Below, piece by piece: positions 43,967-60,227 of a stretch of 64,000 nucleotides of DNA (within the stretch, counting starts at the first letter, position 1; every line of letters starts with the position of its first letter). A program made the position numbers and the translations under genes. The DNA lies in contig DAOUMA010000008.1 in NCBI GenBank assembly GCA_034414555.1, positions 78,560 through 142,559 of the forward strand. Direction: 5' to 3'. The DNA is from Dehalococcoidia bacterium. Lineage in GTDB: Bacteria; Chloroflexota; Dehalococcoidia; GIF9; AB-539-J10. Under the pieces are notes generated by a model. It did no database searches. It saw only the letters and a program-made list of their open reading frames with translations, and was not told the DNA's origin.

Positions 43967-44264
43967 GGTTTTGGTGACCCTCTTAGCCCACTCTTTTCAT
44001 AGTATCTGCAAAACTTGATTTATAACCTCCTGGGTTTTCATATCTACGATAGCTATAGATATTTCCCCGTATTCTAAATACAAAAATAATAAGAGTAACA
44101 TCATTGCTAGCTAAGAAAACATGCGATAAAACCGAAATCAGGGTTGCAGTTGTGTGAGCCTACCTACTAATAAACAATGAATTCCGCTCGGGGGGCTTTG
44201 TATCACAAATGCCCTCTGTGTCAAAAGTCAGGTGGTTGTATAAAAAGTGTTATCGAACAGAATC

Positions 44265-44477
44265 CTATGCCTTTGGCTTTCGCATTTCCATAGGGCGCTT
44301 AAAAATCCATAAGTCGTTTAGACTTTTGTTAGGGTCTCCGCTCAAAAACATTACTAATTCCCAATGCTCCTCGCCTTGCTTATTAAGTTGTCTCATTAAC
44401 TCATCTGGTTCTGACTGAGGAGTTCCACCAAAATGGAGAGCGGGAATTGCTTTGTATTCCCATATCGTATTCGCCAT
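44265..44477 (-). CDS. Small hypothetical protein (DUF4177-like)
   Basis: 70 aa, WEYK..P...EELMRQLNKQGEEHWELV pattern. Confidence 0.4.
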   Translation of the reverse strand: MANTIWEYKAIPALHFGGTPQSEPDELMRQLNKQGEEHWELVMFLSGDPNKSLNDLWIFKRPMEMRKPKA

Positions 44478-44540
44478 TTTTCCTCCTATAAATTACTTGA
44501 ATAAGGTAGTGATTTTATATAAGGCAATTATCCATTGACA

Positions 44541-44783
44541 TCAAGTAGATAACCCTAAGATGTCTTTAATTAACTTCTTCCTTTCTTCAAAACTCGGAAG
44601 ACGTCGAGGATTTGTTAATGCTGCTACATCGAAGCTCATTCCATCTATCGCCCCGGCTAAGAAAACTTTCTCTGGGTCTTTAATCTCTTGCACAAATGCC
44701 TTTACATCTTTCTTGTATTCCGCACTATTCCTCATAGAATTTGCCTTTGCTCGTATTATATCCTCAACAATTTTATTAAGCAT
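44541..44783 (-). CDS. Hypothetical protein
   Basis: 80-aa ORF in an AT-rich island. Confidence 0.3.
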   Translation of the reverse strand: MLNKIVEDIIRAKANSMRNSAEYKKDVKAFVQEIKDPEKVFLAGAIDGMSFDVAALTNPRRLPSFEERKKLIKDILGLST

Positions 44784-45122
44784 CGCTTACCCCCTTTAAC
44801 ATTTAATGGCTTTGCTTCTAAAGTACCTTCTGCTCCAAAAGTCGTTATCAGACTTCAACTGAAACGTCATTCAATTCTTTCAAGTACTGGATTAGAGTAT
44901 CTCTCATTGCATAAGCTTGGTGATATTTATTCGCCAATTCTTTTTGTTTATCCACATCTGGGAGAACATTAACTCCATTCCCCTTACTTGTCAACTCAAT
45001 ATCAATATCTTTGGGTTTTCTTTTCTGGCAACTAGGATATAGACCGATGCTTTCAAAAATCCTACAAGTCTTCTATTTGAGCCTGGGCGGGAGTATAATT
45101 GACTTAACAGCGGGGTGAAGTT

Positions 45123-45713
45123 ATGCCATTTTGTTCTAATTGTGGAAACGAAATACAAGAAAGCATGAAGTTTTGTCCAGAATGCGGTCATAGGCGTGCC
45201 GCTGAGGGAAAGGAGCCAGAAGAGATATTGGGGCTGGATGAAGTAAAGAGGATAGCGAAGGAATACGTTCGGTGTGAAGAGAATATAGGAGATGTGGAGG
45301 TCGAAGGTGCTGTGCCTTGCTCCCGAGAAGGGCAGCTTGTGTGGGTGGTGCAGGGAAAAGTAAGGAAACACACTGTTGACCCGAAACCCTGGCAGGCCTG
45401 GCCGGTTGGTGTAGTGGAAGAGCGCCCTTTCACCGTCCAGGTCTCTGATAAAGATGGGAAGATAACTGATTATAAGCCAGGTGATTGGATAAGGAAGAAT
45501 GCAGAGCAAGCTCCATCGGAGAGTTCTTCCTGTGATACGATACTGGTTGACCCTGAACCATATCCATTTAGCGAGCCCGAGACAATTAGTGATATACGAC
45601 TGAAAGATGCCAAGAGGAGGAACGAAGAAGCTGATGCTGAACTCAAAAGAGAAATCGCAAAGGACATCAGGGATAAGAGAGGAATGAGAGGGGGCTGGGG
45701 ACTGCCTTTCTAA
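45123..45713 (+). CDS. Zinc-ribbon domain protein
   Basis: N-terminal CSNCGNEI...CPECGHR double CxxC. 196 aa. Preferred over the low-complexity 323-aa antisense ORF. Confidence 0.55.
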   Translation: MPFCSNCGNEIQESMKFCPECGHRRAAEGKEPEEILGLDEVKRIAKEYVRCEENIGDVEVEGAVPCSREGQLVWVVQGKVRKHTVDPKPWQAWPVGVVEERPFTVQVSDKDGKITDYKPGDWIRKNAEQAPSESSSCDTILVDPEPYPFSEPETISDIRLKDAKRRNEEADAELKREIAKDIRDKRGMRGGWGLPF

Positions 45714-45821
45714 GTTTTCTAGTCTCTGGGATTGCGAGAATTGCCTCTTAATAAAGCAACTTGAGAAGGGTAAATAACCAACAGATATACCAATAGCCCA
45801 GTGGTGTGGAGAAGAAAGACA

Positions 45822-45974
45822 ATGGTAACAGCTTACTGTATGAAGTGTAATAAGAAGGTGGAGATAAAATACCCAGTCCCGGTCACCGTGAAAGGTGTCC
45901 ATGGAATAAATGGGATTTGCCCTGTTTGTGGCACTAGAGTATTCCGCCCAACAAGAGGTCAATCAAACCGATAA
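45822..45974 (+). CDS. Small zinc-ribbon protein (50 aa; C6/C9...C33/C36)
   Basis: MVTAYCMKCNKKVEIKY...GICPVCGTRVF. Below the ORF-track cutoff. Weak. Confidence 0.3.
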   Translation: MVTAYCMKCNKKVEIKYPVPVTVKGVHGINGICPVCGTRVFRPTRGQSNR

Positions 45975-46057
45975 TGCCAGTTCTGCAAATGCTACAATTA
46001 CAATAATCATGGCCACTCCACCTTTACCTGAGGAGTGATTGTAATAAGGGCGGGAAC

Positions 46058-46642
46058 ATGGGGTTGTTTGGTAAGAAGCTGTCCCCCGAACAAAAGACTG
46101 AACTACGACATTTTGCGGATACCCTAAATGAAATAGGCGAGGCTTGTAAGGTCTCTATGGATGATTTCAAAGTTGACACGATTGACCTCTATCACATTTG
46201 CTTTGCTGTCCGTGCTCACAGTCGAGAATTACAAGAGGTTGAGTATTTGCATGTCCTAGAAAGACCAAATGAGGACGGCATTTGGGAGACCGAAGTTCTT
46301 AGGGAGCCTGGAGTATCATTTGATGTGCCCGCTCTCATAGATAAAGCTCGGAATGCCCTGGAGGCGTATACTGCTTTCCTGAAGGAAGCACAATCAGAAG
46401 TCGCCTCCCTCAGATGCGCTGAGTGGTATCCAAGAAAATATCGCAAGACATTGGATTCGTGGACCTTCTACTTTCAGTGGTTGCTGATGGGTACATGTTC
46501 GGGATGGGTAGCGGAAGCCCTTCAGCCACCTAGACCGCTCGCAAACGAGCACGGAAGCCCTAAGCTCAATATGCTTGTCGGCGGATTAGGTTATATGTAT
46601 AGGGGGCATCGAGACCTTTCCCCCAAACCCCTGAAACTGTGA
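46058..46642 (+). CDS. Hypothetical protein
   Basis: 194-aa ORF. Confidence 0.4.
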   Translation: MGLFGKKLSPEQKTELRHFADTLNEIGEACKVSMDDFKVDTIDLYHICFAVRAHSRELQEVEYLHVLERPNEDGIWETEVLREPGVSFDVPALIDKARNALEAYTAFLKEAQSEVASLRCAEWYPRKYRKTLDSWTFYFQWLLMGTCSGWVAEALQPPRPLANEHGSPKLNMLVGGLGYMYRGHRDLSPKPLKL

Positions 46643-46675
46643 TTAGCTGTTAGATACGATTTAGCCCACACTAAG

Positions 46676-46716
46676 CCTCCGATAAAGCTTCAAGCTATCC
46701 TCAAACTTCACCGACC
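46676..46716. repeat. 40-bp direct repeat (ccgataaagcttcaagctatcctcaaacttcaccgacc), copy 1
   Basis: Copy 2 at 49075-49116 has 2 mismatches. Confidence 0.65.
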
Positions 46717-46723
46717 TAGCGAG

Positions 46724-46732
46724 TGGTATAAT
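46724..46732 (+). promoter_or_regulatory. Candidate extended -10 (TGgTATAAT) upstream of the 46815 gene
   Basis: Sequence motif only. Confidence 0.35.
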
Positions 46733-46814
46733 AGGATTAGGATGATATTTTGCTCACTGAGCAATCTAGCGAAGTAATTCCTATCTAAGAATAGTAATTG
46801 AAACAAAAGAACAA

Positions 46815-48038
46815 ATGTTGAAAAAACTATCTAAGAATGTGAACAAGAACTGGCTGCTCAGCCTGCTGTTAGTCCTTACCCTTTCGCTTGTCGGATGGGG
46901 TATTAGTGCTTTGATTAGTAGTTTCATTCCGTTCTGGTCGCTACTAGGGTTTTCCGTTATTTTTTCTATTGAAAAGTGGTTAAGTTATTATACTAGGAAA
47001 TATAAGGTTGTCGGGAGAATTTATAGACTAATCTTGAATTTCTCCGTACTATCGTTGCTAGGTCTTCTTATCTGGTCTAGCGTATTGCTATTCACTCACC
47101 AATTTATGCAGAGTCCACTCATTGGGAGTTTATTATTTATAGCTGAACTCGGTGTCTTTATCTGGTTGTGTAGGGTCGTCTCAAAAAATAGCTGGCGACA
47201 ACCAAGTATGAAACTCACGGTATTTTCCTTAATATGCTTATTCCTTATATTTTCCTTTGCTGGTGTGCAACCGCTATCCGCCTACAAAGATAGTCTGTTC
47301 AACTCCATATCTACTTATTTCAGAAGCGCTAATCAACCTGCTACGACTCCCTCTTCCTCTAACGAAATCAATTCCGATACCGGCAAATATAGAAACTACT
47401 ATTTGGGTCTTGTAGATACGCCAGAAGGATATCTCTCAGGGGATGGTTGTTATGACGACACAGGAGATTTCATTGTACTCATCAACAACGAAAATGCTGT
47501 TAATCCAAGCTACTCTCAACTAGTTAGTTTCTTACAACAGGATAAGACCGATGAGTTCCCATACACTTATATAATCAGCCCACCAGGAATGTATTATGGT
47601 ACAGCAGAAAGTCATGTAGACCTAAAACATATTCAAAACATAATCGATGGAACTGCACAACCTAGTAACCCTCATGTGTGCGCCGACTTTGCCGAGAGAC
47701 TTCATAATGATGCAGAAATGGCAGGAATTAGATGCGCCTATGTAAGTGTAACATTAACTGGATATACTGACCCTTATCACTATGGTATCCTTTCTAATAC
47801 AGGCCATGCGTGCGATGCCTTTCAAACAACAGATAGAGGGCTAGTCTATATTGACGATACTGGATGGGCGGCAAACCAGCCACACCCAGTTAGAGCAGTG
47901 TCAACGGTAAGTATTGTAGTCGGACAATCCTATACACCCGTGAGCCTATTTCCCGAAGTTGGTTGGCAGAACTCATACAGTAGCATGGGAACAGTTATCG
48001 ATTTTCAAGTTATTTGGGATGGTAGTTGGAATAATTAG
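46815..48038 (+). CDS. Membrane protein: N-terminal multi-TM region plus a C-terminal soluble domain of unknown function
   Basis: 407 aa. Hydrophobic N-terminal 150 aa. Confidence 0.5.
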   Translation: MLKKLSKNVNKNWLLSLLLVLTLSLVGWGISALISSFIPFWSLLGFSVIFSIEKWLSYYTRKYKVVGRIYRLILNFSVLSLLGLLIWSSVLLFTHQFMQSPLIGSLLFIAELGVFIWLCRVVSKNSWRQPSMKLTVFSLICLFLIFSFAGVQPLSAYKDSLFNSISTYFRSANQPATTPSSSNEINSDTGKYRNYYLGLVDTPEGYLSGDGCYDDTGDFIVLINNENAVNPSYSQLVSFLQQDKTDEFPYTYIISPPGMYYGTAESHVDLKHIQNIIDGTAQPSNPHVCADFAERLHNDAEMAGIRCAYVSVTLTGYTDPYHYGILSNTGHACDAFQTTDRGLVYIDDTGWAANQPHPVRAVSTVSIVVGQSYTPVSLFPEVGWQNSYSSMGTVIDFQVIWDGSWNN

Positions 48039-48237
48039 TTCGGGGAGGTCAGGTTAACTCGTGGTTGGTATAGCCTTTTCCATTTCTCCAAAAGTTAAGC
48101 CAATTCATTCAATAGTCGTGTTAGAATACGAACATGCTGCAAAGATTTATTAACTTTATACTCACTTACTGGCAAGGACTTATTACTTCAGCTATGGGAG
48201 TAGTCCAATTGGCAATTTGTTTAGGAGAGTAAACAAG

Positions 48238-48798
48238 ATGCGCATATACTTTACATCAGATTTACATTTACACCATAAAAATATTATTCGTTATGCTCAT
48301 AGGAATCCGCCTTTTAGAAATATTGATGAAATGAATAGGGGATTAATAGCAAATTGGAATAGTACAATTACAAACTCTGATAAGGTATATCACTTGGGTG
48401 ATTTTTGTTTTACACGCGACAATCATATCTATGGCGAAGCCATGCATATGGTTCACGGTAGAACTCTATTTTTGAGGGGAAACCATGATAATGGATTACA
48501 GCATGCCGACTATTTCATTTGTCGCAAGATAGGCGGAATGAAAATATTTATGAGGCATTGGCCTCCGTGGGAACATCCACGCAGATTTATTCATTCGTTT
48601 AGTATCCCTTTTGATGTTGACCTTATTTTGTGTGGGCACGTGCATGATAAGTGGAAATCTCATGTACATAGTGTGGGGCAAAGACTCATTCCCGTAGTTA
48701 ATGTCGGAATAGATGTTTGGGGATACAAGCCAATTAACATGACTACCATAATGGAAGAGGTGAAGAGATTAGTTTCTTCAAAACAGACTAAGGTATAA
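48238..48798 (+). CDS. Calcineurin-like metallophosphoesterase
   Basis: DLHLHH, GDFCF, GNHD and GHVHD motifs. SD AGGAGAG before the ATG at 48238. Confidence 0.8.
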   Translation: MRIYFTSDLHLHHKNIIRYAHRNPPFRNIDEMNRGLIANWNSTITNSDKVYHLGDFCFTRDNHIYGEAMHMVHGRTLFLRGNHDNGLQHADYFICRKIGGMKIFMRHWPPWEHPRRFIHSFSIPFDVDLILCGHVHDKWKSHVHSVGQRLIPVVNVGIDVWGYKPINMTTIMEEVKRLVSSKQTKV

Positions 48799-48862
48799 GG
48801 GTAAATATGATAAGACTGAAACAACCAAGAGTTAACTTAACCAAAAGGAGGAGGTAAATAGA

Positions 48863-48997
48863 ATGAAGTGCCCAAAGTGTGGACACCAGATGCGAGTAAA
48901 GGTTGTAAAAGTAAGAATTAACCCCATCGCAACTGCAACACGGGACGAGCCTCATTACGTTTGCACCAACTGTGGTCATATTATGCCGAAAGACTAA
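48863..48997 (+). CDS. Small zinc-ribbon protein (44 aa)
   Basis: MKCPKCGHQM...CTNCGH. Strong SD AGGAGGAGG upstream. Below the ORF-track cutoff. Confidence 0.4.
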   Translation: MKCPKCGHQMRVKVVKVRINPIATATRDEPHYVCTNCGHIMPKD

Positions 48998-49074
48998 TTC
49001 TGAGCTTGAGCGGACGCCAGAAGTGGCTAACCTTTATGATTTAGGACATCTGTGAGCCTTTAGGGAGGTTCTCA

Positions 49075-49116
49075 AGCCGCCGATAAAGCTTCAAGCTATC
49101 CTCGAACTTCACTGAC
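49075..49116. repeat. 40-bp direct repeat, copy 2
   Basis: Matches 46676-46716. Confidence 0.65.
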
Positions 49117-49161
49117 CGGGTGAAAAATTAACGTTTTTTTGTTTCTTTTCATTTGCGTTTT

Positions 49162-49206
49162 CACAACATATAGTAGTAAAATTATTCTAAAACACAACTC
49201 TAGGGG
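49162..49206 (+). promoter_or_regulatory. Possible tandem NrdR boxes (cacaacatatagtagt ... aacacaactctagggg) upstream of nrdR-nrdJ
   Basis: Partial match to the acaCwAtATaTwGtgt-type palindrome. Weak. Confidence 0.25.
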
Positions 49207-49737
49207 GTGATTATGAAGTGTCCTTATTGTGGCGAGATGGAATCGAGGGTGGTTGACTCGCGCCCTGTAGGCGAAGGAGTGAGGCGGCGAAGGAAGTGCG
49301 CTCACTGTGGTGCTCGTTTTACCACTTATGAACGAGTTCAGCCGCGTAATGTATTTATAGTCAAAAAGGACGGGCGCCGTGAGGAATATAGTCGTGACAA
49401 GCTCTACGCCGGCATTCGCAAAGCCTGTGAGAAACGCCCTTTGCCGACCGGGGCTATTGATAAGCTTGTAGATAGCATTGAAGCTGAGATTTATAAAGCT
49501 GGTAAAGCTGAAATCCCTAGTTCGCTGATTGGCGATTTAGTCATAAGGGGATTAGAGAAACTTGACCATATCGCCTATATCCGCTTTGCCAGTGTATATC
49601 GTGAGTTCACTGACATTACTCAATTGAAACAAGAAATTGACAATCTAACTGAGGGGGAAGCAGCAACACCGTCTAATCAGTTACCGCTGCTACCACCTGA
49701 AGTGGTGAATTCGCTGATTCGTCGTCGGGGAAGGTAA
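49207..49737 (+). CDS. nrdR: Transcriptional repressor NrdR
   Basis: MKCPYCG...CAHCGARFTTYER zinc ribbon plus ATP-cone. 176 aa. Confidence 0.9.
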   Translation: MIMKCPYCGEMESRVVDSRPVGEGVRRRRKCAHCGARFTTYERVQPRNVFIVKKDGRREEYSRDKLYAGIRKACEKRPLPTGAIDKLVDSIEAEIYKAGKAEIPSSLIGDLVIRGLEKLDHIAYIRFASVYREFTDITQLKQEIDNLTEGEAATPSNQLPLLPPEVVNSLIRRRGR

Positions 49738-49739
49738 TA

Positions 49740-52277
49740 ATGGCTAATCCAAGGAAGTCTACCCGAACTAAACCTATTGACCATAATAAGGTAGTCAAGG
49801 CTGTTTTTGCTGCTGGAGAGGCTATGGGCATAACCGACAGGCTTCTGCTGGAGAAATTTACCGAGCAAGTAGCACAGCGCCTGCGGGTGGCTCAACCTCT
49901 GCCTGGTATGGAGGAATTTGTTCCGTTACAAATTAAGCATCTAACTGAGTCTCAGCTTCAGGCTGTAATCAGTGAAGTTATTACCGTTGATGAATTTTCC
50001 CCTCAAGCCCGAGGCAAGGTCGTTTCGGGAATCAAACTAAGCCAAAATGCCCTGAGGGTTCTGGAAAAGAGATATTTGATGAAGGATAAAGAGGGGAAAG
50101 TCATTGAGACTCCTAAGGCGCTATTTCGCCGTGTGGCAAAACATATTGCTAAAGCAGAGCTGATTTACGATGCTAAAGCAGATGTCTCTTCCTGGGAAAA
50201 GGCATTTTACAAGCTAATGGCAGACCTGGAGTTTCTACCCAATTCTCCCACGTTGATGAATGCTGGAAGAGAGCTGGGGCAACTTTCAGCTTGTTTTGTT
50301 ATTCCCGTTGACGATTCCATGGAGTCCATCTTCGATGCTGTGAAATACACCGCCTTAATTCATAAGAGCGGTGGTGGCACCGGTTTCTCCTTTTCCCGGC
50401 TTAGACCTGAAAATGATAGGGTCGGTTCTACCGGTGGTGTTGCCAGTGGTCCCATTTCCTTCATGAGGACTTTTGATGTAACTACTGATGTGATAAAGCA
50501 AGGGGGGATGCGGCGGGGGGCTAATATGGCAATTCTTAATGTTGACCACCCGGACATCTTGAAGTTCATCACTGTCAAAGGAGACCCAAATGCCTTGACC
50601 AATTTTAACCTATCGGTAGCGGTAACCGATGAATTTATGGAGGCGGTGAGGAAGGGGACTGATTATAACTTGGTAAATCCGCAAAGTAGGGAGGTGGCGG
50701 GGAAGCTTAATGCTAAGGAAGTATTCCACAAAATGGTGGAAATGGCATGGCGCACTGGCGACCCCGGAGTTGTATTTATAGATGAGATAAACAGACATAA
50801 TCCCACTCCTGAATTGGGCAGGATAGAAAGCACCAACCCCTGCGGGGAACAACCTCTGCTTCCCTTTGAGTCCTGTAATTTAGGCTCGATAAATTTGTCC
50901 CGGGTGGTTACTCATCAGGATGGGAAAGCGGAGATTGACTATGACAAATTATCTCATCTAGTAAGGCTGGTAGTTCGCTTTCTTGATGACGTCATTGATG
51001 TTAACCGCTTCCCCCTGCCCCAGATAGAGGAAATGACTAAGGCTACCCGGAAAATAGGCTTAGGGGTTATGGGATTTGCTGACATGCTCATCCAGCTTGG
51101 CGTTTCTTATGATAGTGAGCAAGGATTAGCCATCGCTGAGGAAGTTGCCCGTTTCGTCTCCGAAGAGGCAAACAAAGCCTCGCTGGAGCTAGGAGAGCAG
51201 AGAGGTGTTTTTCCTGCTTTTAAAGGGAGCGTTTATGATGTGCCCCGTGGTCCGCGATTTAGAAATGCCACTCGAACCACTGTAGCTCCCACCGGTAGTT
51301 TAAGCATAATTGCCAATTGCTCCAGCGGCATCGAGCCAATCTTCGCCCTGAGCTATGTACGTCATATCCTCGAGGGTGAGGAACTTGTGGAGGTAAATCC
51401 CTATTTTGAGCAAGTGGCTAAAGATGGGGGATTTTATTCTCCGGAGTTGATGAAGGATTTAGCCCTTGGGAAAAAGCTACGGGATATAGAGGGTGTTCCT
51501 GAAGATGTAAAGCGGATTTTCGTTACTGCACATGATATAACTCCAGAATGGCATGTTAAGATGCAGGCAGTTTTTCAGAGATTTTGCGATAGCGCTGTTT
51601 CCAAAACGGTTAATTTCCCCTACGAGGCAACGCCGGAGGATGTAGCTAATGTATATATGCGGGCTTATGAAGAGAAGCTGAAGGGGATAACCATTTATCG
51701 AGATAGAAGCCGGGAAAGCCAGGTTCTCACTATAGGTGAGGTGGTGAAGGGGGTTGAAAGGGGGGTTGTCCCCCGCAAAAGGCCTAAAGTTACCCGGGGC
51801 ATAACCGAGAGGGTGAGCACAGGATGTGGCTATATCTACGTAACTTTAAATTTCGATGAGCACGGGGTGGTTGAGGTCTTCTCCACCTTAGGTAAAGCTG
51901 GAGGCTGTGCTGCTGCTCAGCTTGAAGCAATAAGTCGTCTCATCTCTTTATCTCTGAGGTCCGGGCTGGATTTATCCTCCGTGGTAAAGCAATTGCGAGG
52001 CATTCGTTGTCCCTCGATTGCCTGGGAGCAAGGACATGCTATCACCTCCTGTGCGGATGCTATTGCCAGTGTGCTGCAAAAATATATCAAAAGTGGTGGT
52101 GGTAACAGTCCTGATGCTCAGAGCAGCGAAGTTATTGCCGATGCGGAAACGTCCCAGTCCGGTAACTCTGGAGTGGTTAGAAGCGCAGCGGGACAATGTC
52201 CTGAGTGCGGAGGGCCTCTTATTTACCAGGAAGGGTGTAATATCTGCCTCAATTGCGGCTTCACCAAGTGCGGGTAA
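49740..52277 (+). CDS. nrdJ: Adenosylcobalamin-dependent (class II) ribonucleotide reductase
   Basis: 845 aa. RNR fold motifs (NPCGEQPL, the thiyl-radical Cys region). C-terminal Cys4 cluster CPECGG...CNICLNCG. Starts 2 nt after the nrdR stop. Confidence 0.9.
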   Translation: MANPRKSTRTKPIDHNKVVKAVFAAGEAMGITDRLLLEKFTEQVAQRLRVAQPLPGMEEFVPLQIKHLTESQLQAVISEVITVDEFSPQARGKVVSGIKLSQNALRVLEKRYLMKDKEGKVIETPKALFRRVAKHIAKAELIYDAKADVSSWEKAFYKLMADLEFLPNSPTLMNAGRELGQLSACFVIPVDDSMESIFDAVKYTALIHKSGGGTGFSFSRLRPENDRVGSTGGVASGPISFMRTFDVTTDVIKQGGMRRGANMAILNVDHPDILKFITVKGDPNALTNFNLSVAVTDEFMEAVRKGTDYNLVNPQSREVAGKLNAKEVFHKMVEMAWRTGDPGVVFIDEINRHNPTPELGRIESTNPCGEQPLLPFESCNLGSINLSRVVTHQDGKAEIDYDKLSHLVRLVVRFLDDVIDVNRFPLPQIEEMTKATRKIGLGVMGFADMLIQLGVSYDSEQGLAIAEEVARFVSEEANKASLELGEQRGVFPAFKGSVYDVPRGPRFRNATRTTVAPTGSLSIIANCSSGIEPIFALSYVRHILEGEELVEVNPYFEQVAKDGGFYSPELMKDLALGKKLRDIEGVPEDVKRIFVTAHDITPEWHVKMQAVFQRFCDSAVSKTVNFPYEATPEDVANVYMRAYEEKLKGITIYRDRSRESQVLTIGEVVKGVERGVVPRKRPKVTRGITERVSTGCGYIYVTLNFDEHGVVEVFSTLGKAGGCAAAQLEAISRLISLSLRSGLDLSSVVKQLRGIRCPSIAWEQGHAITSCADAIASVLQKYIKSGGGNSPDAQSSEVIADAETSQSGNSGVVRSAAGQCPECGGPLIYQEGCNICLNCGFTKCG

Positions 52278-52286
52278 GTTATTAAA

Positions 52287-53732
52287 ATGGGTAGTAGAAG
52301 GAAGGATAATTACTATTTAGCTCTGAGGCAGATAGCCAAAGTTGCCAATTCAGACTTGAGCACCAGGAGAATTTTCAATTCCGTTGCTAAGAGTGCTGCT
52401 AAAGCGGTGGGTGCCAATGGCTGCCGTATTTCTTTTCTTGATGTGCAAAAGGAATATTTAATCGATGTTGGTGCTTATGGTCTCAGTGACTTTTACCTCA
52501 AGAAGGCGCCGCTTGAGGCTCGTAAAAGCATACCTGAAGTTCTTAATGGTGAAGTGGTATATATTGCCGATGCCACCAAAGATGAGAGGATTCAGCATAC
52601 TCAGATAGCAAAGGCACAAAGAATATCTTCGATACTGGCAGCTCCTATAACGGAAAAAGGCGAGGTGAGTGGTGAAATCAGGCTTTATACCCATGACATC
52701 CATCAATTCTCGGAGGGTGATAAAAATTTTATTCTCGCTGTTGCCAATCTAAGCGCTGCTCTGTTAGCGAAAGATGAGCTTCAGCGCTTATTGGGGAGTG
52801 GCTATAAGGGCCTTCAAGGACAATCGAAATTGCCGCAATTGCCTACTACATCGTTAAGGCCAACCGAGTTTGCTCACCCCAGCGAGGAGGAATTTGCCCG
52901 GCTTCTGGATTTCTATCAAATTGAGTGGCTCTATGAACCTCGTTCCTTCCCACTTCGCTGGGAAAACGGTGGAATAGTTGAGATGTTTACCCCTGACTTT
53001 TATTTACCGGAGTTTGACCTCTACATCGAGCTCACCACCTTGAAGCAGGGTTTGGTGACGGAGAAGAACCGCAAGGTGCGTCGGCTTAAGGAACTTTATC
53101 CCGAAGTTAACATCAAGCTCCTTAATAAAAACGATTTCCTCAGGCTTCTGGCTAAATATGGCTATGGCTCCTTAAGCGGGGCCAAAGTACCCGGCATTGA
53201 CCGTATTCTGTTCACCCATAATCAAATTCAGCGAAGAGTGAAAGCATTAGCACGGCAAATCTCCCGTGATTATGAAGGGGAGAAACTTATCTTGGTGGGA
53301 GTTTTGAAGGGAGTTGTCTGCTTCATGACTGACCTGATGCAACATCTTTCTGTGCCAGTTAGTGTGGATTTTATGGCTATTTCCTATTACGGTGAAGGGA
53401 AAAGTCAGCTGGTTAAAATAACCAAGGACCTCGATGATAGCATAACAGGGCAGCATGTATTGATGGTTGAGGATATTGTAGACACGGGCATGACGTTAAA
53501 TTATGTTCTGAAATATTTACTGGCTCACGAGCCAGCGAGTCTCCGTGTATGCACCTTGCTTGATAAACGAGCACGCCGGCTGGTGGATGTTCCTCTTGAT
53601 TATGTGGGTTTCGAAATTCCGGATGAGTTCATAGTTGGTTATGGGTTGGACTATAGAGGAGAATACCGTAACCTTCCCTTTATCGGTACTTTTCACCCTG
53701 AATTGGCTGAGGAAGGAAAGTCAGGAAAATAA
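52287..53732 (+). CDS. Three-part fusion protein: N-terminal GAF-like domain, a central region of unknown function, and a C-terminal hypoxanthine/guanine phosphoribosyltransferase
   Basis: The C-terminal 180 aa has an HPRT PRPP-binding motif (VLMVEDIVDTGMTL) and a LILVGVLKG start. The N-terminal 150 aa is GAF-like. 481 aa total. Confidence 0.6.
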   Translation: MGSRRKDNYYLALRQIAKVANSDLSTRRIFNSVAKSAAKAVGANGCRISFLDVQKEYLIDVGAYGLSDFYLKKAPLEARKSIPEVLNGEVVYIADATKDERIQHTQIAKAQRISSILAAPITEKGEVSGEIRLYTHDIHQFSEGDKNFILAVANLSAALLAKDELQRLLGSGYKGLQGQSKLPQLPTTSLRPTEFAHPSEEEFARLLDFYQIEWLYEPRSFPLRWENGGIVEMFTPDFYLPEFDLYIELTTLKQGLVTEKNRKVRRLKELYPEVNIKLLNKNDFLRLLAKYGYGSLSGAKVPGIDRILFTHNQIQRRVKALARQISRDYEGEKLILVGVLKGVVCFMTDLMQHLSVPVSVDFMAISYYGEGKSQLVKITKDLDDSITGQHVLMVEDIVDTGMTLNYVLKYLLAHEPASLRVCTLLDKRARRLVDVPLDYVGFEIPDEFIVGYGLDYRGEYRNLPFIGTFHPELAEEGKSGK

Positions 53733-54079
53733 AAAAAGTCCCAAGCAACCTCACCTTTTGCTTTGGTTCCTCACCTTCCCACCTTCCGGCTTCCACCTAC
53801 CTTGCGCCCTCACTTTTGGTTCCTGCGCCTTTCTGTTTCGGCCTTCCAGGATTGGGCTCCTCACCACCCGCCTTCCAGCTTGGTTGCTTGGAACTAATTA
53901 TTTACTGTATCACATTATTATAAGTTTGTCAATAGTTAATACCTAAAAAAATTTGATTTGTGGTTTTAGAGCATCTTTTCCAGCTCTTTCTTTTGCTATT
54001 TTACCATCCTGGCTAATATAGCCCGAAAGGGAAGTAAAATTATAATTACACAAAGCGAAAAGCTAATTAGAAAAAGATC

Positions 54080-55033
54080 CTATAACTTGCCCTCTTGCCC
54101 CAGTTTCTTGATGATATCCGAAGCAGCCGAGTAAGGGTCAGTCCTTTTGTTCACTAAGTCGTCTATCAGCTTTTCCAGATAATTATTCTGGTTAACTATC
54201 TGGAAGACGTGGTCCATTAAGGAACTCTTAAGCACTTCAATTAGCTCAAGCCTTGCTCTCTCCTTAAGATGTGTATCGTGTCCTCCAGTAGCGATGAGGA
54301 ATTCCTTATGCTGGTAAATTCCCTCCACCAACTCATCAATCCCTTTATTATTGACCGCTTCAGTTAAGAATATTTTGGGCTTCCATGCCTGTGGAGAATA
54401 AACACTCATTTGGAGCATCGCTTCTAGCTCCGCTTTCAATTCATCAGCCCCCTTTTTATCTGCTTTGTTTATGACAAAGATATCAGCTATCTCTAGAATG
54501 CCAGCTTTAAGCGTTTGAACCCAATCCCCCATTCCAGGGACTAAGATCACCATAGAGGTGTGAGTGAAATTAATTATATCTACCTCTGCTTGACCTGCGC
54601 CTACGGTTTCTATCAAGATGATATCCTTACCCATGGCATCCATAATGTTAATAACGTTGGCTGTAGCCCGGGATAGTCCTCCTCGCCAGCCTCTCGTAGC
54701 CAAACTCCTGATAAAAACACCCCCGTCCGTGGCATGTCTCTGCATCCTTATCCTGTCCCCCAGTATTGCACCACCACTAAAGGGGCTGGAGGGGTCGATA
54801 GCGATAACACCAATTGTCTTACCCCTCTTCCTGAAGACATCTATCAGCAGGTCTATTAAGGTACTTTTCCCCGAACCCGGGGAACCCGTAATACCAATGA
54901 TGTAGGACCTCCCAGTATGGGGGTAGAGGGCTTTTAACTCTTCGATAGCACTCGGCAATTCATCTTCCACATCTCTTATCAATCTTGCCGTTGCCTTTAT
55001 ATTGCCTTGCAATACCTCTTTCGCAAGTCTCAT
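54080..55033 (-). CDS. meaB: Methylmalonyl-CoA mutase-associated GTPase MeaB/ArgK
   Basis: GITGSPGSGKSTL P-loop. 317 aa. Confidence 0.9.
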   Translation of the reverse strand: MRLAKEVLQGNIKATARLIRDVEDELPSAIEELKALYPHTGRSYIIGITGSPGSGKSTLIDLLIDVFRKRGKTIGVIAIDPSSPFSGGAILGDRIRMQRHATDGGVFIRSLATRGWRGGLSRATANVINIMDAMGKDIILIETVGAGQAEVDIINFTHTSMVILVPGMGDWVQTLKAGILEIADIFVINKADKKGADELKAELEAMLQMSVYSPQAWKPKIFLTEAVNNKGIDELVEGIYQHKEFLIATGGHDTHLKERARLELIEVLKSSLMDHVFQIVNQNNYLEKLIDDLVNKRTDPYSAASDIIKKLGQEGKL

Positions 55034-55065
55034 TTATGGTACCTCATCACTCTTCTTCTCCAACA

Positions 55066-55476
55066 TTATGCATGCCGGGGTTTCACATTAGCTCTTGTCC
55101 AATTTATTATCTCGCTGAGAGATGAGCCTGGTAAGAATATTTCTTTAATCCCCACTTTCTTAAGCTTTGGAATATCTTCTTTGGGGATGATACCTCCCAC
55201 TATAACTATTATATCTTCCGCCTTATTTTCCTTCAGCAGCTCAACTACCCGTGGGAACAAGTAGACATGAGCGCCAGAGAGACAACTTAGACCGATTAGA
55301 TCAACATCCTCCTGCAAAGCTGCATTGACAATCTGCTCTGGAGTCTGATGCAGGCCAGTGTATATGACCTCAAATCCGGCATCTCTATAAGCTCGAGCTA
55401 CAATTTTCACTCCCCGGTCATGACCATCAAGCCCTGGCTTGGCAACCAGAATCCTTATCTTCCTTTCCGAACTCAT
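55066..55476 (-). CDS. Methylmalonyl-CoA mutase small (B12-binding) subunit
   Basis: [17 protein letters not shown] is the DxHxxG cobalamin-binding motif. 136 aa. Confidence 0.9.
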
Positions 55477-55485
55477 CTTCTCTTC

Positions 55486-57189
55486 CTATAAGTGAATAGC
55501 TGACTCGCGGTATTCTCCAAGGACATCTCTCCACGTATCGCAAATTTCCTGCTCAGTGGCATATTCCTTCACCGCCTCTATCACGTAAGGCATCAAATTT
55601 TTATCAGTTTTAGAAGCAGTGCGGAGGTCACTCAAGGTTTGAATCACTTGCCGATTATCTCTTATTCTTTTAACCTCATTTGTTCTGGCGATTTGCTCCT
55701 CTTCTAATTCCTCGGGTATCTGCAGTAGCGGGGGGTAAACTTGTTCACCGGTGGAGTACTTATTTACCCCTATTACAACTTTCTCCCCCTTATCTATTTG
55801 TTGCTGGTAATGGTAAGCAGCATTGGCAATCTCCATTTGAGGGAAGCCTTGCTCAATAGCAGCAGGCATGCCTCCCATGTCATCTATCTTATTGATATAT
55901 TCCCAGGCTTTCTCCTCCATCTGATTGGTCAATGATTCCACAAAATATGACCCAGCCAGAGGGTCTATGGTATTAGTGACCCCTATCTCATCAGCAATAA
56001 TCTGTTGGGTGCGGAGAGCAGTGGTAGCAGCAAACTCGGAAGGCAAAGCTAGCGTCTCATCTAAAGAGTTGGTGTGTAGAGACTGTGTTCCCCCTAGAAC
56101 CGCCGCCAGTGCCTCAATAGCAGTCCTGATAACATTATTATAAGGCTGTTGAGCAACAAGTGAGCATCCTGCAGTCTGAGTATGGAACCTCATCCACCAA
56201 GAGCGAGGGTCCTTAGCCTTAAATCTATCCCTCATAATTTTAGCCCACATCCTTCTAGCTGCCCTAAATTTGGCAACCTCCTCGAAGAAATCAAGATGAG
56301 AGTTAAAGAAGAACGAGAGACGGGGGGCAAAAGAATCAACATCCAGCTTCTTCCGTTCAATAACATCCTGTACATACTCTATTCCATCAGCCAGGGTAAA
56401 AGCCAATTCCTGAATAGCGGTAGAGCCCGCCTCACGAATATGGTAACCACTAATGCTTATAGTATTCCATTTAGGAACATACTTGGTGCCAAACTCGATT
56501 GTGTCGCTTATCAGCCTAATTGATGGCTCAAGCGGGAGCATCAGTGTTTTCTGAGCAATGAATTCCTTCAGCATATCATTTTGAATTGTCCCCCCAATTT
56601 TATCCCAGCTTATCCCAGCTTTTTCAGCCGCAGCTAAATACATAGCCCAGAGTATGGATGCTGGGGGATTGATGGTCATGGAAGTGGTAATCTTATCGAA
56701 GGGTATCCTGTCGGTCAGGATCTCGAAATCTCTCAAGGTATCAATCGCTACCCCGCACCTTCCACACTCACCTCTAGCCCGGGGCGAATCAGTATCATAT
56801 CCCATTAAAGTAGGAAAATCGAAAGCAGTGCTCAGCCCTGTCTCACCCTCTTTAAGTAAAAGATGCCATCTTTTATTAGTATCCTCAGCACTGCCAAATC
56901 CCGCGAACATACGCATTGTCCATTCCCTTCCTCGATACATTGTTGGCTGACATCCCCTGGTAAACGGGAAGATACCAGGATAGCCAATATCTCTGGCGAA
57001 ATCCAGGTCTGCGATATCTTCTGGGGTATAAATTCCTTTTATTTTCATGTCGGAAACAGTGGAGAATCCTCCTTTTCTCTCCGGGTTTTGCATAATGACT
57101 TTCTCTACTTCTTTCTCCCATTCTTTCTTACCTTCACGCACCTGCCTTAAAGTTTCCTCTGCAAACATAGCTGCCTCCTCTTTGAGCAA
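55486..57189 (-). CDS. Methylmalonyl-CoA mutase large (catalytic) subunit
   Basis: 567 aa. MCM catalytic-domain signatures. Immediately upstream of the B12 subunit. Confidence 0.9.
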   Translation of the reverse strand: MLKEEAAMFAEETLRQVREGKKEWEKEVEKVIMQNPERKGGFSTVSDMKIKGIYTPEDIADLDFARDIGYPGIFPFTRGCQPTMYRGREWTMRMFAGFGSAEDTNKRWHLLLKEGETGLSTAFDFPTLMGYDTDSPRARGECGRCGVAIDTLRDFEILTDRIPFDKITTSMTINPPASILWAMYLAAAEKAGISWDKIGGTIQNDMLKEFIAQKTLMLPLEPSIRLISDTIEFGTKYVPKWNTISISGYHIREAGSTAIQELAFTLADGIEYVQDVIERKKLDVDSFAPRLSFFFNSHLDFFEEVAKFRAARRMWAKIMRDRFKAKDPRSWWMRFHTQTAGCSLVAQQPYNNVIRTAIEALAAVLGGTQSLHTNSLDETLALPSEFAATTALRTQQIIADEIGVTNTIDPLAGSYFVESLTNQMEEKAWEYINKIDDMGGMPAAIEQGFPQMEIANAAYHYQQQIDKGEKVVIGVNKYSTGEQVYPPLLQIPEELEEEQIARTNEVKRIRDNRQVIQTLSDLRTASKTDKNLMPYVIEAVKEYATEQEICDTWRDVLGEYRESAIHL

Positions 57190-57646
57190 TTAATGTGATT
57201 GTTTAACTTTAGCAGATTTCGAAGGGCAATACCTGGCACAAAACAAACTTCGTACTGGACCATCGCCCACTGAGAAATTCGTCACAGAGTATATCTGACA
57301 CTGAGAGTGAAGTCAAACACGCCCCGCTATCTGGTATTAAAAGTAAGCTTTTTCTCATAGCTCTCGGTCAGTCATTCGTCGCGAAGGCCAGTGGCGAACT
57401 TACCAACTTGGGCAAGATAGAAATTTGTGCCTCAAGGGAAGGGAAATAGCCGATAATGCTGGCAAATTATGGGAAGTAAGGATAGCAACAGCGACTTTAC
57501 CGTAGCTTATTACAGCAGGTAAATTGTATCAAATTCTGTTAACATCAAATCACGACATATCGGTAAAGCTGCTGCTTTTACCCTGTAATTTGTTTAAACT
57601 GAGTAATAAAAATTAGGAACTTAGTAGAAAAAGGGGGTGAATATCA

Positions 57647-59236
57647 ATGAAACTATTAGATGAGATGCCGGTAAGAGGGTTTTCGGCATTTGCTGAGTCT
57701 CTTCTCTATGCTATGGGCAGGACGCCAGAGGAGATAGCCAGGCCAGGAATTGCTATTGTCAATTCACAGAATGAGCTTGTTCCGGGGCATATCCATCTCG
57801 ATGACATTGCATCTGCTGTTCGAGATGGAATCGTATCAGCAGGGGGCACCCCTTTTGAATTTCCCACCATCGCTATCTGTGATGGTCTTGCCATGGGGCA
57901 TGCTGGAATGTGCTATCCACTGGCTAGCCGGGAGCTGATAGCTGATTCAATTGAGGCCATGATATTAGCGCATAACCTGGATGCCATGGTGCTGGTCACT
58001 GGCTGTGACAAGATCACACCGGGAATGATGATGGCAGCAGCTCGTTTGGACATTCCCGCTATCGTAATCAACGGAGGACCGATGTTGGCGCCACGACCCA
58101 CGAGCAAAGTTCCTCTGTTAGGATGTGGCAGTTGTCCCGGTTTGTATACTGCCAACAGCATGGCCTGCATGGCTGAAGTGCTTGGCCTTGCCTTACCCTG
58201 GAATAGTTGTATCCCTGCGGCACATGGTGCGAGGAGGCAACTGGCAAGAAAAGCCGGCGTAAGGATTATGGAACTTTTAAGGGAAGGGATAATTCCCAGG
58301 CAGATTCTCACCAAAAAAGCCTTCGAGAATGCCATAACGGTGGATATGGCTATCGGCGGTTCCTCCAACACTATCCTGCACCTCATGGCTCTTGCCAGTG
58401 AGGCAGAAATAGACATTGGCCTGGAGCTCTTTGATCAAATAGGCCGCCGGACTCCCAGACTATGCGATCTCAGTCCTGCGGGGCCCTACTTCTTAGAAGA
58501 TTTGTATGAGGCCGGGGGATTACAGGCGGTAATGGCGGAACTATCTAACAAGAATCTGCTCCATCTGGATGCACTTACGCTTAGCGGCCAGACTTTAGGG
58601 GAAATTATTGAAGGAGCCCGGAGCACACGCCCCGAAGTAATCAGGAGCATAGAGGAGCCATATTATTCTGAAGGGGGACTCGCTATCCTTTATGGCAATC
58701 TAGCTCCCGATGGTGCAGTAGTAAAGCAGTCAGCGGTAAAGCCTGAGATGTTCAAGCATTCTGGTCCAGCCAGAGTATTTGACCTTGAGGAAGATGCTGT
58801 AACGGCAATGCTGGATGGCAAAATCCATAGCGGTGATGTGGTAGTAATTAGATATGAGGGTCCCAGGGGAGGGCCGGGATTCCGGGAAATGCTGATGGCT
58901 ACCAGCACGATACTGGCGGTAGAGTTAAGTGGAGAGGTAGCGCTGGTCACCGATGGCAGGTTTTCCGGGGCAACAGAAGGCGCTGCTATCGGGCATGTAT
59001 CCCCTGAGGCTATGGAAGGGGGCCCGATTGCAATTGTGGAGGAAGGAGACATCATTGAGATAGATATTCCCTCTCGGAAGTTAAACGTGAGACTAGCGCA
59101 GAAAGAAATCCAGAGTCGCCTTGCCCGGTGGTCACCTCCGCCCTTGAAGAGAGAAGTTAAAAGCTATCTGCGCAGATATTCCCGTTTAGTGACCTCAGCG
59201 AGCACCGGTGCCATACTGATAACGCCTGAAAGGTAG
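57647..59236 (+). CDS. ilvD: Dihydroxy-acid dehydratase (IlvD/EDD family)
   Basis: CDGLAMGH / CDKITPGM Fe-S ligand regions. 529 aa. Confidence 0.85.
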
Positions 59237-59243
59237 TAAGCCC

Positions 59244-60227
59244 TTAAAATCGCCGCTGGACATCGGCAAGTACCTCCTCAGCCTCTCGCACCATTCTTTC
59301 CAGGAGTTCCCGGCAACTGACGATTTCCTTGATGAGGCCGATAGATTGACCGAGCGCCAAGGGAGCATATTCCACATCGCCGCTTTCCCAGGCTTTCTGG
59401 ATGCGCTCGCCAGAGATGAGGGATATTATTTCTTCGAGCCCACCGTGCCGCGCCTCTACCTTCAGCACCTCCTGGACTAATTTATTCTTCAGGGCTCGCA
59501 TTTGTAAGTTAATAGACTTGCATATCAAGGTAACATCGTTTTCCTGGCGGTGAACGAGCTCCTCTTTGATTTTGGGGTGTGCCAGGCACTCTGTTGTCGC
59601 GATGAACCGTGAAGCCATCATGACTCCATCCGCTCCAAGGACCATAGCAGCAGCCATGCTCCTTCCATCTGCAATGCCTCCTGCAGTAATAACAGGGATG
59701 TTCACGGACTCACGGATTCGGGGGGTGAGCAGCATGGTGGTCACGTCATCATCCAGAGGATGACCACCTTCCTCGAAACCCGCGGCAATAACAGCAGCGT
59801 AGCCAGCTTTCTCCGCATGCTTCGCATGTCTGACCGCACCAACTTTATGTATCAACCTCACACCTGCTTCCTTGGCCTGGCTAACGGAGTCTGGTCCCAG
59901 GTACTTATCTAAGGGTGCGCCTGAGATTTCAAGGGCAGTCACTTTTTCTTCGCAACAGACCTGAAAGTATTCCTGGTGTAGCTCTTTTGTAATGCGCACG
60001 GATGGCAATAGAGTGATGTTCACGGAGAAGGGGTTATCAGTCAACCTTCGGGTCTTATCAATAGCCTTCCGAAGAGCATTTCCAGATTCGTAGTTTCCCG
60101 CAGTCAAGTTTCCGAGTCCACCGGCATTAGAAATAGCGGCACAAAGCTCAGGTTTAGCCAGCCACATCATACCCCCACATATAATAGGATGCTGAATGCC
60201 AAAAAGTTCTGTGATTCTAGTTTTCAC
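59244..60227 (-). CDS. Enoyl-ACP reductase II (FabK)-like / nitronate monooxygenase-family FMN oxidoreductase
   Basis: MKTRITELFGIQHPIICGGMMWLAKPELCAAISNAGGLG. Confidence 0.75.
   Translation of the reverse strand: MKTRITELFGIQHPIICGGMMWLAKPELCAAISNAGGLGNLTAGNYESGNALRKAIDKTRRLTDNPFSVNITLLPSVRITKELHQEYFQVCCEEKVTALEISGAPLDKYLGPDSVSQAKEAGVRLIHKVGAVRHAKHAEKAGYAAVIAAGFEEGGHPLDDDVTTMLLTPRIRESVNIPVITAGGIADGRSMAAAMVLGADGVMMASRFIATTECLAHPKIKEELVHRQENDVTLICKSINLQMRALKNKLVQEVLKVEARHGGLEEIISLISGERIQKAWESGDVEYAPLALGQSIGLIKEIVSCRELLERMVREAEEVLADVQRRF

Follow-up and report, generated by a model that had tools for sequence, protein, structure and literature searches.

What a purine salvage enzyme does in one polypeptide with two further protein regions, directly behind a ribonucleotide reductase, is the question raised by a locus of a Dehalococcoidia bacterium (assembly GCA_034414555.1, contig DAOUMA010000008.1). 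A stretch of 64,000 nucleotides of this contig was analyzed, and the whole stretch is referred to as the window. The gene in question is a single open reading frame (ORF) located at 52287..53732 (+) in the ORF list of the window, which runs from ATG to stop and encodes 481 amino acids (aa). A preliminary description made from the DNA alone had divided the product into a GAF-like N-terminal third, an unrecognizable middle and a C-terminal hypoxanthine/guanine phosphoribosyltransferase (HPRT), and the ORF and its three parts were confirmed exactly. In this study, we show by profile comparison that the middle region, here named X, is homologous to phage T7 endonuclease I, and from gene organization that X and HPRT go together throughout, as one fused protein or as adjacent genes, in several phyla, with locus L089 as the exception.

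The three-part ORF is found far beyond this contig. The identical 481-aa sequence was recorded from three contigs, and its cluster at 90% identity has 61 members. Full-length homologs fall into at least 120 further clusters with query coverage of 93-100% and identity of 68-96%. The same fusion was also sought in other genomes, as the preliminary description had proposed, and the order GAF-X-HPRT was found in all 80 related loci fetched, which come from species-representative metagenome-assembled genomes (MAGs) of Dehalococcoidia and Chloroflexota, with taxon assignments based on MAG titles. An assembly or sequencing frameshift artifact fusing separate genes, for which one could cite that X and hpt are separate genes in most other lineages, is ruled out by the three contigs, the 61-member cluster and a single-frame architecture common to hundreds of independent assemblies, the 80 genomes of same order among them; we regard its probability as negligible.

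X covers residues about 194-295 (52866..53171, +), and its conserved site is formed by H197, E200, Y216, E217, D237, E248, T250, T251, K260 and K263. The region alone gave no match above threshold in Pfam or NCBIfam (Phage_endo_I, E = 0.11), and as a single sequence nothing significant against the PDB sequences. To this extent the middle was as unrecognizable as first described; a family profile, however, reveals a domain like T7 endonuclease I. This profile was built from 49 diverse X members and searched against the PDB, where chains of T7 endonuclease I were retrieved (3cae, 3.4e-6; 2pfj, 2.4e-4; 1m0d, 3.9e-4; 1fzr, 2.3e-3), the sole other entry being listed at E = 1.6. In the profile alignment, E200, D237 and E248 are paired with the catalytic E20, D55 and E65 of the T7 enzyme. 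Endonuclease and Holliday-junction-resolvase families were matched by the middle region in PHROGs (1.7e-8 to 2e-5), and a tblastn search of X against 50,697 phage genomes hit only genes annotated as endodeoxyribonuclease I or endonuclease I (33-39% identity, best E 4e-6). The modelled X monomer also has the core of the PD-(D/E)XK fold, built of a helix, a mixed sheet, a second helix and one more strand, and its carboxylates sit on the central strands as well as in the first helix. The profile, PHROGs and tblastn matches together identify X as an endonuclease-I-like PD-(D/E)XK domain.

The comparison with T7 endonuclease I (gp3; PF05367; PDB 1M0D, 2PFJ, 3CAE) displays both the kinship and the distance. 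The T7 enzyme acts on four-way junctions as a domain-swapped homodimer. Besides the PD-(D/E)XK core with its equivalent metal ligands, the two proteins share a TPDF motif, a run of basic residues behind the third strand and the strand pattern 'hP-E-h-x-I-+-h', and the identity of X to pelagiphage orthologs of the T7 protein is 33-39%. X differs in having Thr at the Lys67 position within a motif E-L-T-T-[LMQ]-[KR]-Q, in the additional invariant residues H197, Y216, E217, K260 and K263, and in being cellular rather than viral and paired with HPRT. It also misses the gathering score of PF05367 (Phage_endo_I), with 12.5 bits for the X of the window and 18.4 bits for the related protein P0131 against 29.1. 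Because the Pfam threshold is failed and the defining catalytic residue is absent, X should not be filed under the endonuclease I family on sequence grounds, despite the common fold and ancestry.

The X family is large. A search with residues 188-300 retrieved 1,935 representatives at 50% identity, 895 of them at E <= 1e-10, and identity to the query is 57-90% for the best 150. Within the 80 Dehalococcoidia loci, conservation is highest in X, with a mean identity to the window protein of 79% (range 71-96%), followed by HPRT with 75% (64-95%) and by GAF as the least conserved part with 56% (36-89%). The family is cellular, as only one weak match was found in 2.9 million viral contigs. We presume this sole viral relative (L170 2434-2673, IMG/VR UViG_3300032118_000240; 34% identity in 91 residues) to be a regular phage endonuclease I outside the X family. 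No significant sequence similarity was detected between X and the RAP, DUF559 or Vsr-like PD-(D/E)XK domains; RAP domains are RNA-binding modules of eukaryotic organelles, and the Vsr active site uses His residues. A role in a defense system was considered and rejected, PADLOC matches being marginal only (PD-(D/E)XK motif, E of at least 2.8e-4, 15-18 bits).

Site conservation was counted over 483 unique X sequences. E200, E217, D237, E248 and K263 are present in 100% of them, Y216, T250, T251 and K260 in more than 99%, and H197 in 97%. A basic helix T-x-K-N-R-K-x-R is conserved as well. The T7 catalytic tetrad of E20, D55, E65 and K67 is incomplete in X, where the three carboxylates are kept and the lysine is not. 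HMMER aligns the essential Lys67 with Thr250, which is Thr in 482 of the 483 sequences. MAFFT instead introduces a gap of three residues and places Lys253 opposite Lys67; this position is Lys in 78% of sequences and R, S or N in the others, and such variability indicates that Lys253 is not an essential catalytic residue. Under either alignment, the canonical E-x-K lysine is thus lost across the X family, as judged from the aligned sequences. The 2pfj chain reads VETAG at the Lys67 position. The K67A variant of T7 endonuclease I binds junctions and is not known to cleave them.

Four architectures were found among the best 150 X representatives: GAF-X-HPRT, X-HPRT, a cytidylate-kinase-like PF13189 domain followed by X, and X alone. 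The first belongs to Dehalococcoidia. The second is represented in the cultured Thermomicrobium roseum DSM 5159, where hpt (WP_012643103.1, 333 aa) on megaplasmid NC_011961.1 at 368419-369420 (L171 4944-5945) encodes an X-HPRT fusion whose X is 69% identical to that of the window. In Bacillota, the kinase-like-X gene is directly followed by a gene of 177-181 aa scoring above the HGPRTase cut-off, in two unrelated neighborhoods. These X-adjacent enzymes are 49-54% identical to the window HPRT, compared with 41-47% for a second, free HPRT paralogue that occurs in some Dehalococcoidia. In three of four look-ups, stand-alone X genes (114-151 aa, from Armatimonadota among others) share 4 bp with the Pribosyltran gene that follows them; the fourth look-up found no phosphoribosyltransferase gene beside X.

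This association was followed into metagenomes by a scan seeded with stand-alone X, which yielded 80 loci, 66 of them with enough downstream DNA. HPRT was found after X in all 66 (64 on the same strand within 400 bp, one fused and one at 422 bp), with the reservation that these loci are the best matches to one clade, are not phylogenetically independent and are biased to short contigs. A third conserved neighbor of X-hpt, such as tilS or ftsH, was not found by all-against-all clustering of flanking ORFs, in which spurious ORFs of high-G+C contigs dominate the clusters. Judged by gene organization, X is the universal partner of this HPRT clade. This Rosetta-stone pattern denotes that X and these enzymes almost certainly act together, and probably as a complex.

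The PF13189 domain of Bacillota (N-terminal about 180 aa of P0158, P0198, P0211 and P0232; L081 7001-7990) has GSGG and lacks the Walker-A GxxxxGK[ST], and it scores 33.7 bits against a cut-off of 102 for (d)CMP kinase. With a degenerate Walker A and a score so far under the cut-off, this 'cytidylate kinase-like' domain probably does not act as a kinase. Long linkers of low complexity, similar to the one between GAF and X, connect it to X. In other lineages, the place before X is empty. From these architectures, GAF is a lineage-specific addition of Dehalococcoidia, and the kinase-like domain is its counterpart in Bacillota, the two being exchangeable attachments at the N-terminus of a common X-HPRT core.

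The C-terminal third is a genuine HPRT, as had been recognized before. The domain covers residues 305-473 (53199..53705, +) and scores 210.2 bits over residues 307-469 with the NCBIfam HGPRTase equivalog TIGR01203, against a cut-off of 150; Pfam Pribosyltran matches residues 310-457 at 6.7e-29, and the best PDB match is the Thermoanaerobacter HGPRT 1r3u (2e-57). The positions compared were L-K-G, the S-Y loop, E-D-I-V-D-T-G, the O6 Lys/Arg, the stacking Phe, the Asp and the Arg, and the window protein keeps them as LKG, an SYY loop, EDIVDTG, LLDK, F448, D455 and R461. Across 78 fused and 67 other X-linked HPRTs, catalytic positions and those binding phosphoribosyl pyrophosphate (PRPP) show either no change or conservative substitutions, and 144 of the 145 keep all that were examined. 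The sole outlier is the T. roseum protein, which reads EDIVNTG (Asp to Asn at the general base) and in which the S-Y catalytic loop is lost or divergent. With its catalytic residues intact, the fused HPRT of the window is predicted to be catalytically competent. Membership in the PyrR/PurR type of regulator was rejected, the best PyrR model giving 32.7 bits where 218 are required.

HPRT, a textbook enzyme and drug target, is generally regarded as a free-standing dimer or tetramer. The C-terminal domain shares every examined catalytic and PRPP-binding motif with canonical bacterial HGPRT (TIGR01203; PDB 1R3U). It differs in carrying an endonuclease-like N-terminal partner plus GAF, and in being encoded with nrdR and nrdJ in place of the common tilS-hpt-ftsH arrangement.

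The GAF-like nature of the N-terminal third was likewise borne out. The domain covers residues 25-160 (52359..52766, +), exceeds the Pfam gathering scores of both GAF_2 (PF13185, 32.2 bits against 28.6) and GAF (PF01590, 27.7 against 22.4), and matches the GAF protein 3e0y in the PDB at 1.2e-7. Mapping by Pfam, which the preliminary description had recommended, thus placed the boundaries at 25-160 for GAF and 310-457 for Pribosyltran. Model confidence for GAF is moderate, with means of the predicted local distance difference test (pLDDT) between 34 and 84 for blocks of ten residues over residues 21-160. Between GAF and X lies a variable and probably disordered linker, residues about 165-193 (52779..52865, +) by alignment and model; over its some 28 residues the alignment of homologs has zero conserved columns and several indels, and the full-length AlphaFold2 model gives a pLDDT of 24-33. 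An N-terminal GAF before an enzymatic output is also found in GAF-regulated enzymes such as cyclic-nucleotide phosphodiesterases and cyclases, PtsP/EI-Ntr and NifA, and the closest NCBIfam similarities of the window GAF are to the GAF regions of PtsP and NifA. Unlike in those proteins, the GAF here is carried on a flexible, non-conserved linker with no signaling helix, and an extra domain precedes the enzyme.

The gene was said to lie directly after nrdJ, and this holds both in the window and in its relatives. The first gene of the group is nrdR (49207..49737, +), encoding a repressor with Zn-ribbon and ATP-cone (Pfam Zn_ribbon_NrdR 3.3e-18, ATP-cone 1.5e-21). It is followed after 2 nucleotides (nt) by an nrdJ-type ribonucleotide reductase gene (49740..52277, +), whose 845-aa class II-type product was recognized by Pfam Ribonuc_red_lgC (3.9e-138), Ribonuc_red_lgN and TSCPD and ends in a Cys-rich C-terminal tail. 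Only 9 nt separate the nrdJ stop (52277) from the ATG of the fusion gene. A promoter and terminator scan between nrdR, nrdJ and the fusion gene found nothing convincing and none above background, and an Rfam scan of 44000-60000 found zero families at the gathering threshold, hence zero cobalamin riboswitches. Given the two short gaps and no internal promoter or terminator, the simplest view from the gene layout is a three-gene operon nrdR-nrdJ-hpt in this genome, of which the fusion gene is the last. In 66 of the 67 Dehalococcoidia loci with enough flank, nrdJ ends upstream of the fusion at a distance below 300 bp, and nrdR was found upstream of nrdJ in 64 of the 80 related loci. The link to nrd is restricted to Dehalococcoidia, and the X-hpt pairs elsewhere occur in unrelated contexts.

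The explanation that we favor, at somewhat less than an even chance, is that the ORF is the fused, Dehalococcoidia-specific form of a widespread two-part X-HPRT salvage module, in which X is an obligate, dimerizing and ligand-binding partner acting on HPRT and GAF is a tethered sensor. X and HPRT would form an obligate physical complex, with X dimerizing as T7 endonuclease I does and so fixing the oligomeric arrangement of HPRT. The invariant acidic and basic site of X may bind Mg2+ together with a phosphate-bearing ligand, such as a nucleic-acid structure, an oligonucleotide or a nucleotide, and through this site X could control, localize or feed the conversion of base and PRPP to inosine or guanosine monophosphate and pyrophosphate. 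Binding or a modified chemistry seems likelier for X than classical junction cleavage. GAF would contribute a small-molecule input through its flexible tether, in the place that a degenerate P-loop cytidylate-kinase-like domain would take in Bacillota. In Dehalococcoidia, the operon placement would tie purine nucleotide supply to NrdR-controlled deoxyribonucleotide synthesis.

Several observations weigh against this explanation. The flexible linker between GAF and X obscures the route by which GAF would act, and the full-length AlphaFold2 model, computed with 23 close homologs, reaches a pLDDT of only 52 and is too poor for domain packing to be read from it. The narrow sampling of the metagenomic loci noted above counts here as well, and L089 4001-4483 (P0490) encodes a 160-aa stand-alone X without an adjacent phosphoribosyltransferase. 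In six Dehalococcoidia loci a second, free hpt lies immediately downstream of the fusion (L006 7096-7578, L013 7246-7734, L067 6893-7408, and also L059, L073 and L079), so that the fused HPRT may not be the housekeeping copy there. These free genes encode the paralogue with 41-47% identity to the HPRT of the fusion; the sole copy scanned, that of L006, exceeds the TIGR01203 cut-off. Finally, an invariant set of four carboxylates, two Lys, two Thr, one His and one Tyr has the look of a catalytic center rather than of a scaffold, which suggests that X may be a true enzyme.

If it is one, X could act as a metal-dependent nuclease or phosphodiesterase with a rearranged active site, His197 or Lys260/Lys263 standing in for the E-x-K lysine, and break down nucleic acid or a phosphodiester metabolite to feed salvage beside HPRT. 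Phage T7 recycles host DNA with endonuclease I, and such a system would resemble it, with NrdJ and the kinase-like domain belonging to the same recycling logic. This would conform to the strict retention of the metal triad with E217, K260, K263 and H197, to the fusion of X with another nucleotide-metabolism domain (PF13189), and to the presence of genes for the SurE nucleotidase or a purine nucleoside phosphorylase near some loci. It sits badly with the Thr that occupies the Lys67 position almost without exception, with the inconstancy of the alternative Lys253, and with a kinase-like domain without Walker-A GK[ST]. Moreover, HPRT takes free bases as substrates, which a nuclease does not release, so that the path from X to HPRT would require several additional enzymes. 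We consider an active nuclease unlikely. A different role would be that of a trigger enzyme, with X binding DNA or RNA, HPRT sensing purine, PRPP or (p)ppGpp, and the pair regulating the expression of genes such as nrd or those of its own operon, in the manner of TilS-HprT at ftsH or of PyrR and PurR, which are regulators with the phosphoribosyltransferase fold. The DNA-binding TilS-HprT complex, with tilS overlapping hprT, offers a precedent, and X is encoded in the same slot directly upstream of hpt with a 4-bp overlap; the basic helix of X and the T. roseum HPRT, deprived of its general-base Asp and S-Y loop, point the same way. All other X-linked HPRTs compared retain their catalytic residues, an invariant metal triad would serve no obvious purpose in a domain that only binds, no conserved target or neighbor was found outside Dehalococcoidia, and the PyrR models stay far under their cut-offs. 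A trigger enzyme is, in our estimate, also unlikely, and slightly more so than an active nuclease.

The preliminary description had proposed that salvage is coupled allosterically to the nucleotide status. In the form considered here, a nucleotide-status ligand bound by GAF would switch HPRT directly, and the middle would be a passive linker without a special role. GAF and HPRT are both genuine, and the synteny with nrdR-nrdJ is conserved. A spacer role for the middle region was nevertheless rejected, as it is the most conserved part of the protein and also occurs independently of GAF, being found with HPRT and without GAF in most lineages. The passive-linker part of this proposal is largely refuted. 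The variable, very low-confidence linker does not favor rigid allostery from GAF to the enzyme either, and the proposal as a whole is left with a very slight probability. A bolder reading is that X-HPRT constitutes an unrecognized two-subunit holoenzyme in several bacterial phyla, in which the re-engineered site of X (E/E/D/E + H + K/K + T/T) would perform a new phosphoester chemistry or sense nucleic-acid structures or fragments, obligately coupled to purine phosphoribosylation. We put it forward as possible but doubtful. If it were true, HPRT, which is among the best-studied enzymes, would have an overlooked conserved partner that in Dehalococcoidia is also wired to a GAF sensor and the NrdR/NrdJ operon.

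In Bacillus subtilis, tilS overlaps hprT and the products form a complex that activates ftsH (PMC8152036). The similarity to X-HPRT lies in a nucleic-acid-handling protein encoded directly upstream of hpt and overlapping it; TilS itself is unrelated to X, and the window protein has no PP-loop domain. Many of the full-length homologs are named 'bifunctional protein TilS/HprT' by JGI, and some stand-alone X proteins 'hypoxanthine phosphoribosyltransferase'; P0032, P0036 and P0510 are examples of homologs so labelled. The former label was rejected for the 481-aa protein, in which neither Pfam nor NCBIfam detected a TilS PP-loop ATPase, and with the TilS domain absent the JGI TilS/HprT labels are annotation artifacts. 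Other public names of X-family proteins, 'hypoxanthine phosphoribosyltransferase', 'cytidylate kinase family protein' and 'hypothetical protein', are incomplete or wrong. A full-text literature search found no description of a GAF-HPRT or endonuclease-HPRT fusion or of the X-hpt pairing, though its coverage was incomplete and an earlier mention is possible. What appears new here is an HPRT with a previously unrecognized conserved endonuclease-like partner.

This partner belongs to a large, very conserved and uncharacterized family homologous to a phage Holliday-junction resolvase without the canonical lysine. In Chloroflexota (Dehalococcoidia and Thermomicrobia included), Armatimonadota, Bacillota and, as it appears, high-G+C lineages, it is always either fused to hpt or coupled to it in translation. 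The pairing predicts a physical and functional complex of X and HPRT, for which T. roseum WP_012643103.1 provides a cultured source, and its recognition corrects mis-annotations such as 'TilS/HprT'. It may reveal a new regulation of purine salvage or a new PD-(D/E)XK activity, and may show how purine salvage and the B12-dependent synthesis of deoxyribonucleoside triphosphates are coupled in organohalide-respiring Dehalococcoidia.

Some further features were observed around these genes. In the Armatimonadota-type loci L086 (5092-6291) and L088 (5041-6273), a DinB/IMS-family polymerase gene converges on hpt, and genes for SurE and a Macro-domain protein are located upstream on the opposite strand in L086-L088. 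The T. roseum X-HPRT gene converges on mutM (Fpg), the 3' ends overlapping by about 70 bp. DNA-repair genes (DinB/IMS, and mutM in T. roseum) thus recur near X-hpt; since the loci are related to one another, this may be coincidence. The neighbors of the unpaired X gene of L089 are a gene of the purine-nucleoside-phosphorylase family and the genes for FTHFS, FolD and Thy1, which belong to the metabolism of purines, folate and thymidylate. A high-G+C clade of X (L106, L110, L113, L121, L122, L133 and L153) carries a conserved extension behind the domain, KYG+LALV+xLSGxxGQV, behind which come tails rich in Ala and Arg. The apparent extensions of 300-500 aa at the N-terminus of X in high-G+C contigs were dismissed as domains and are stop-free frames. 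In the window, TSCPD of the NrdJ-type reductase (49740-52277) occupies residues 690-782, and the Cys-rich tail, CPECGG...CNICLNCGFTKCG, is zinc-ribbon-like. The presumably B12-dependent nrdJ is adjoined by a convergent methylmalonyl-CoA-mutase-like cluster at 54080-57189 (-), in which a MeaB-like GTPase, a small B12-binding subunit and a large subunit were recognized by eye from the translations.

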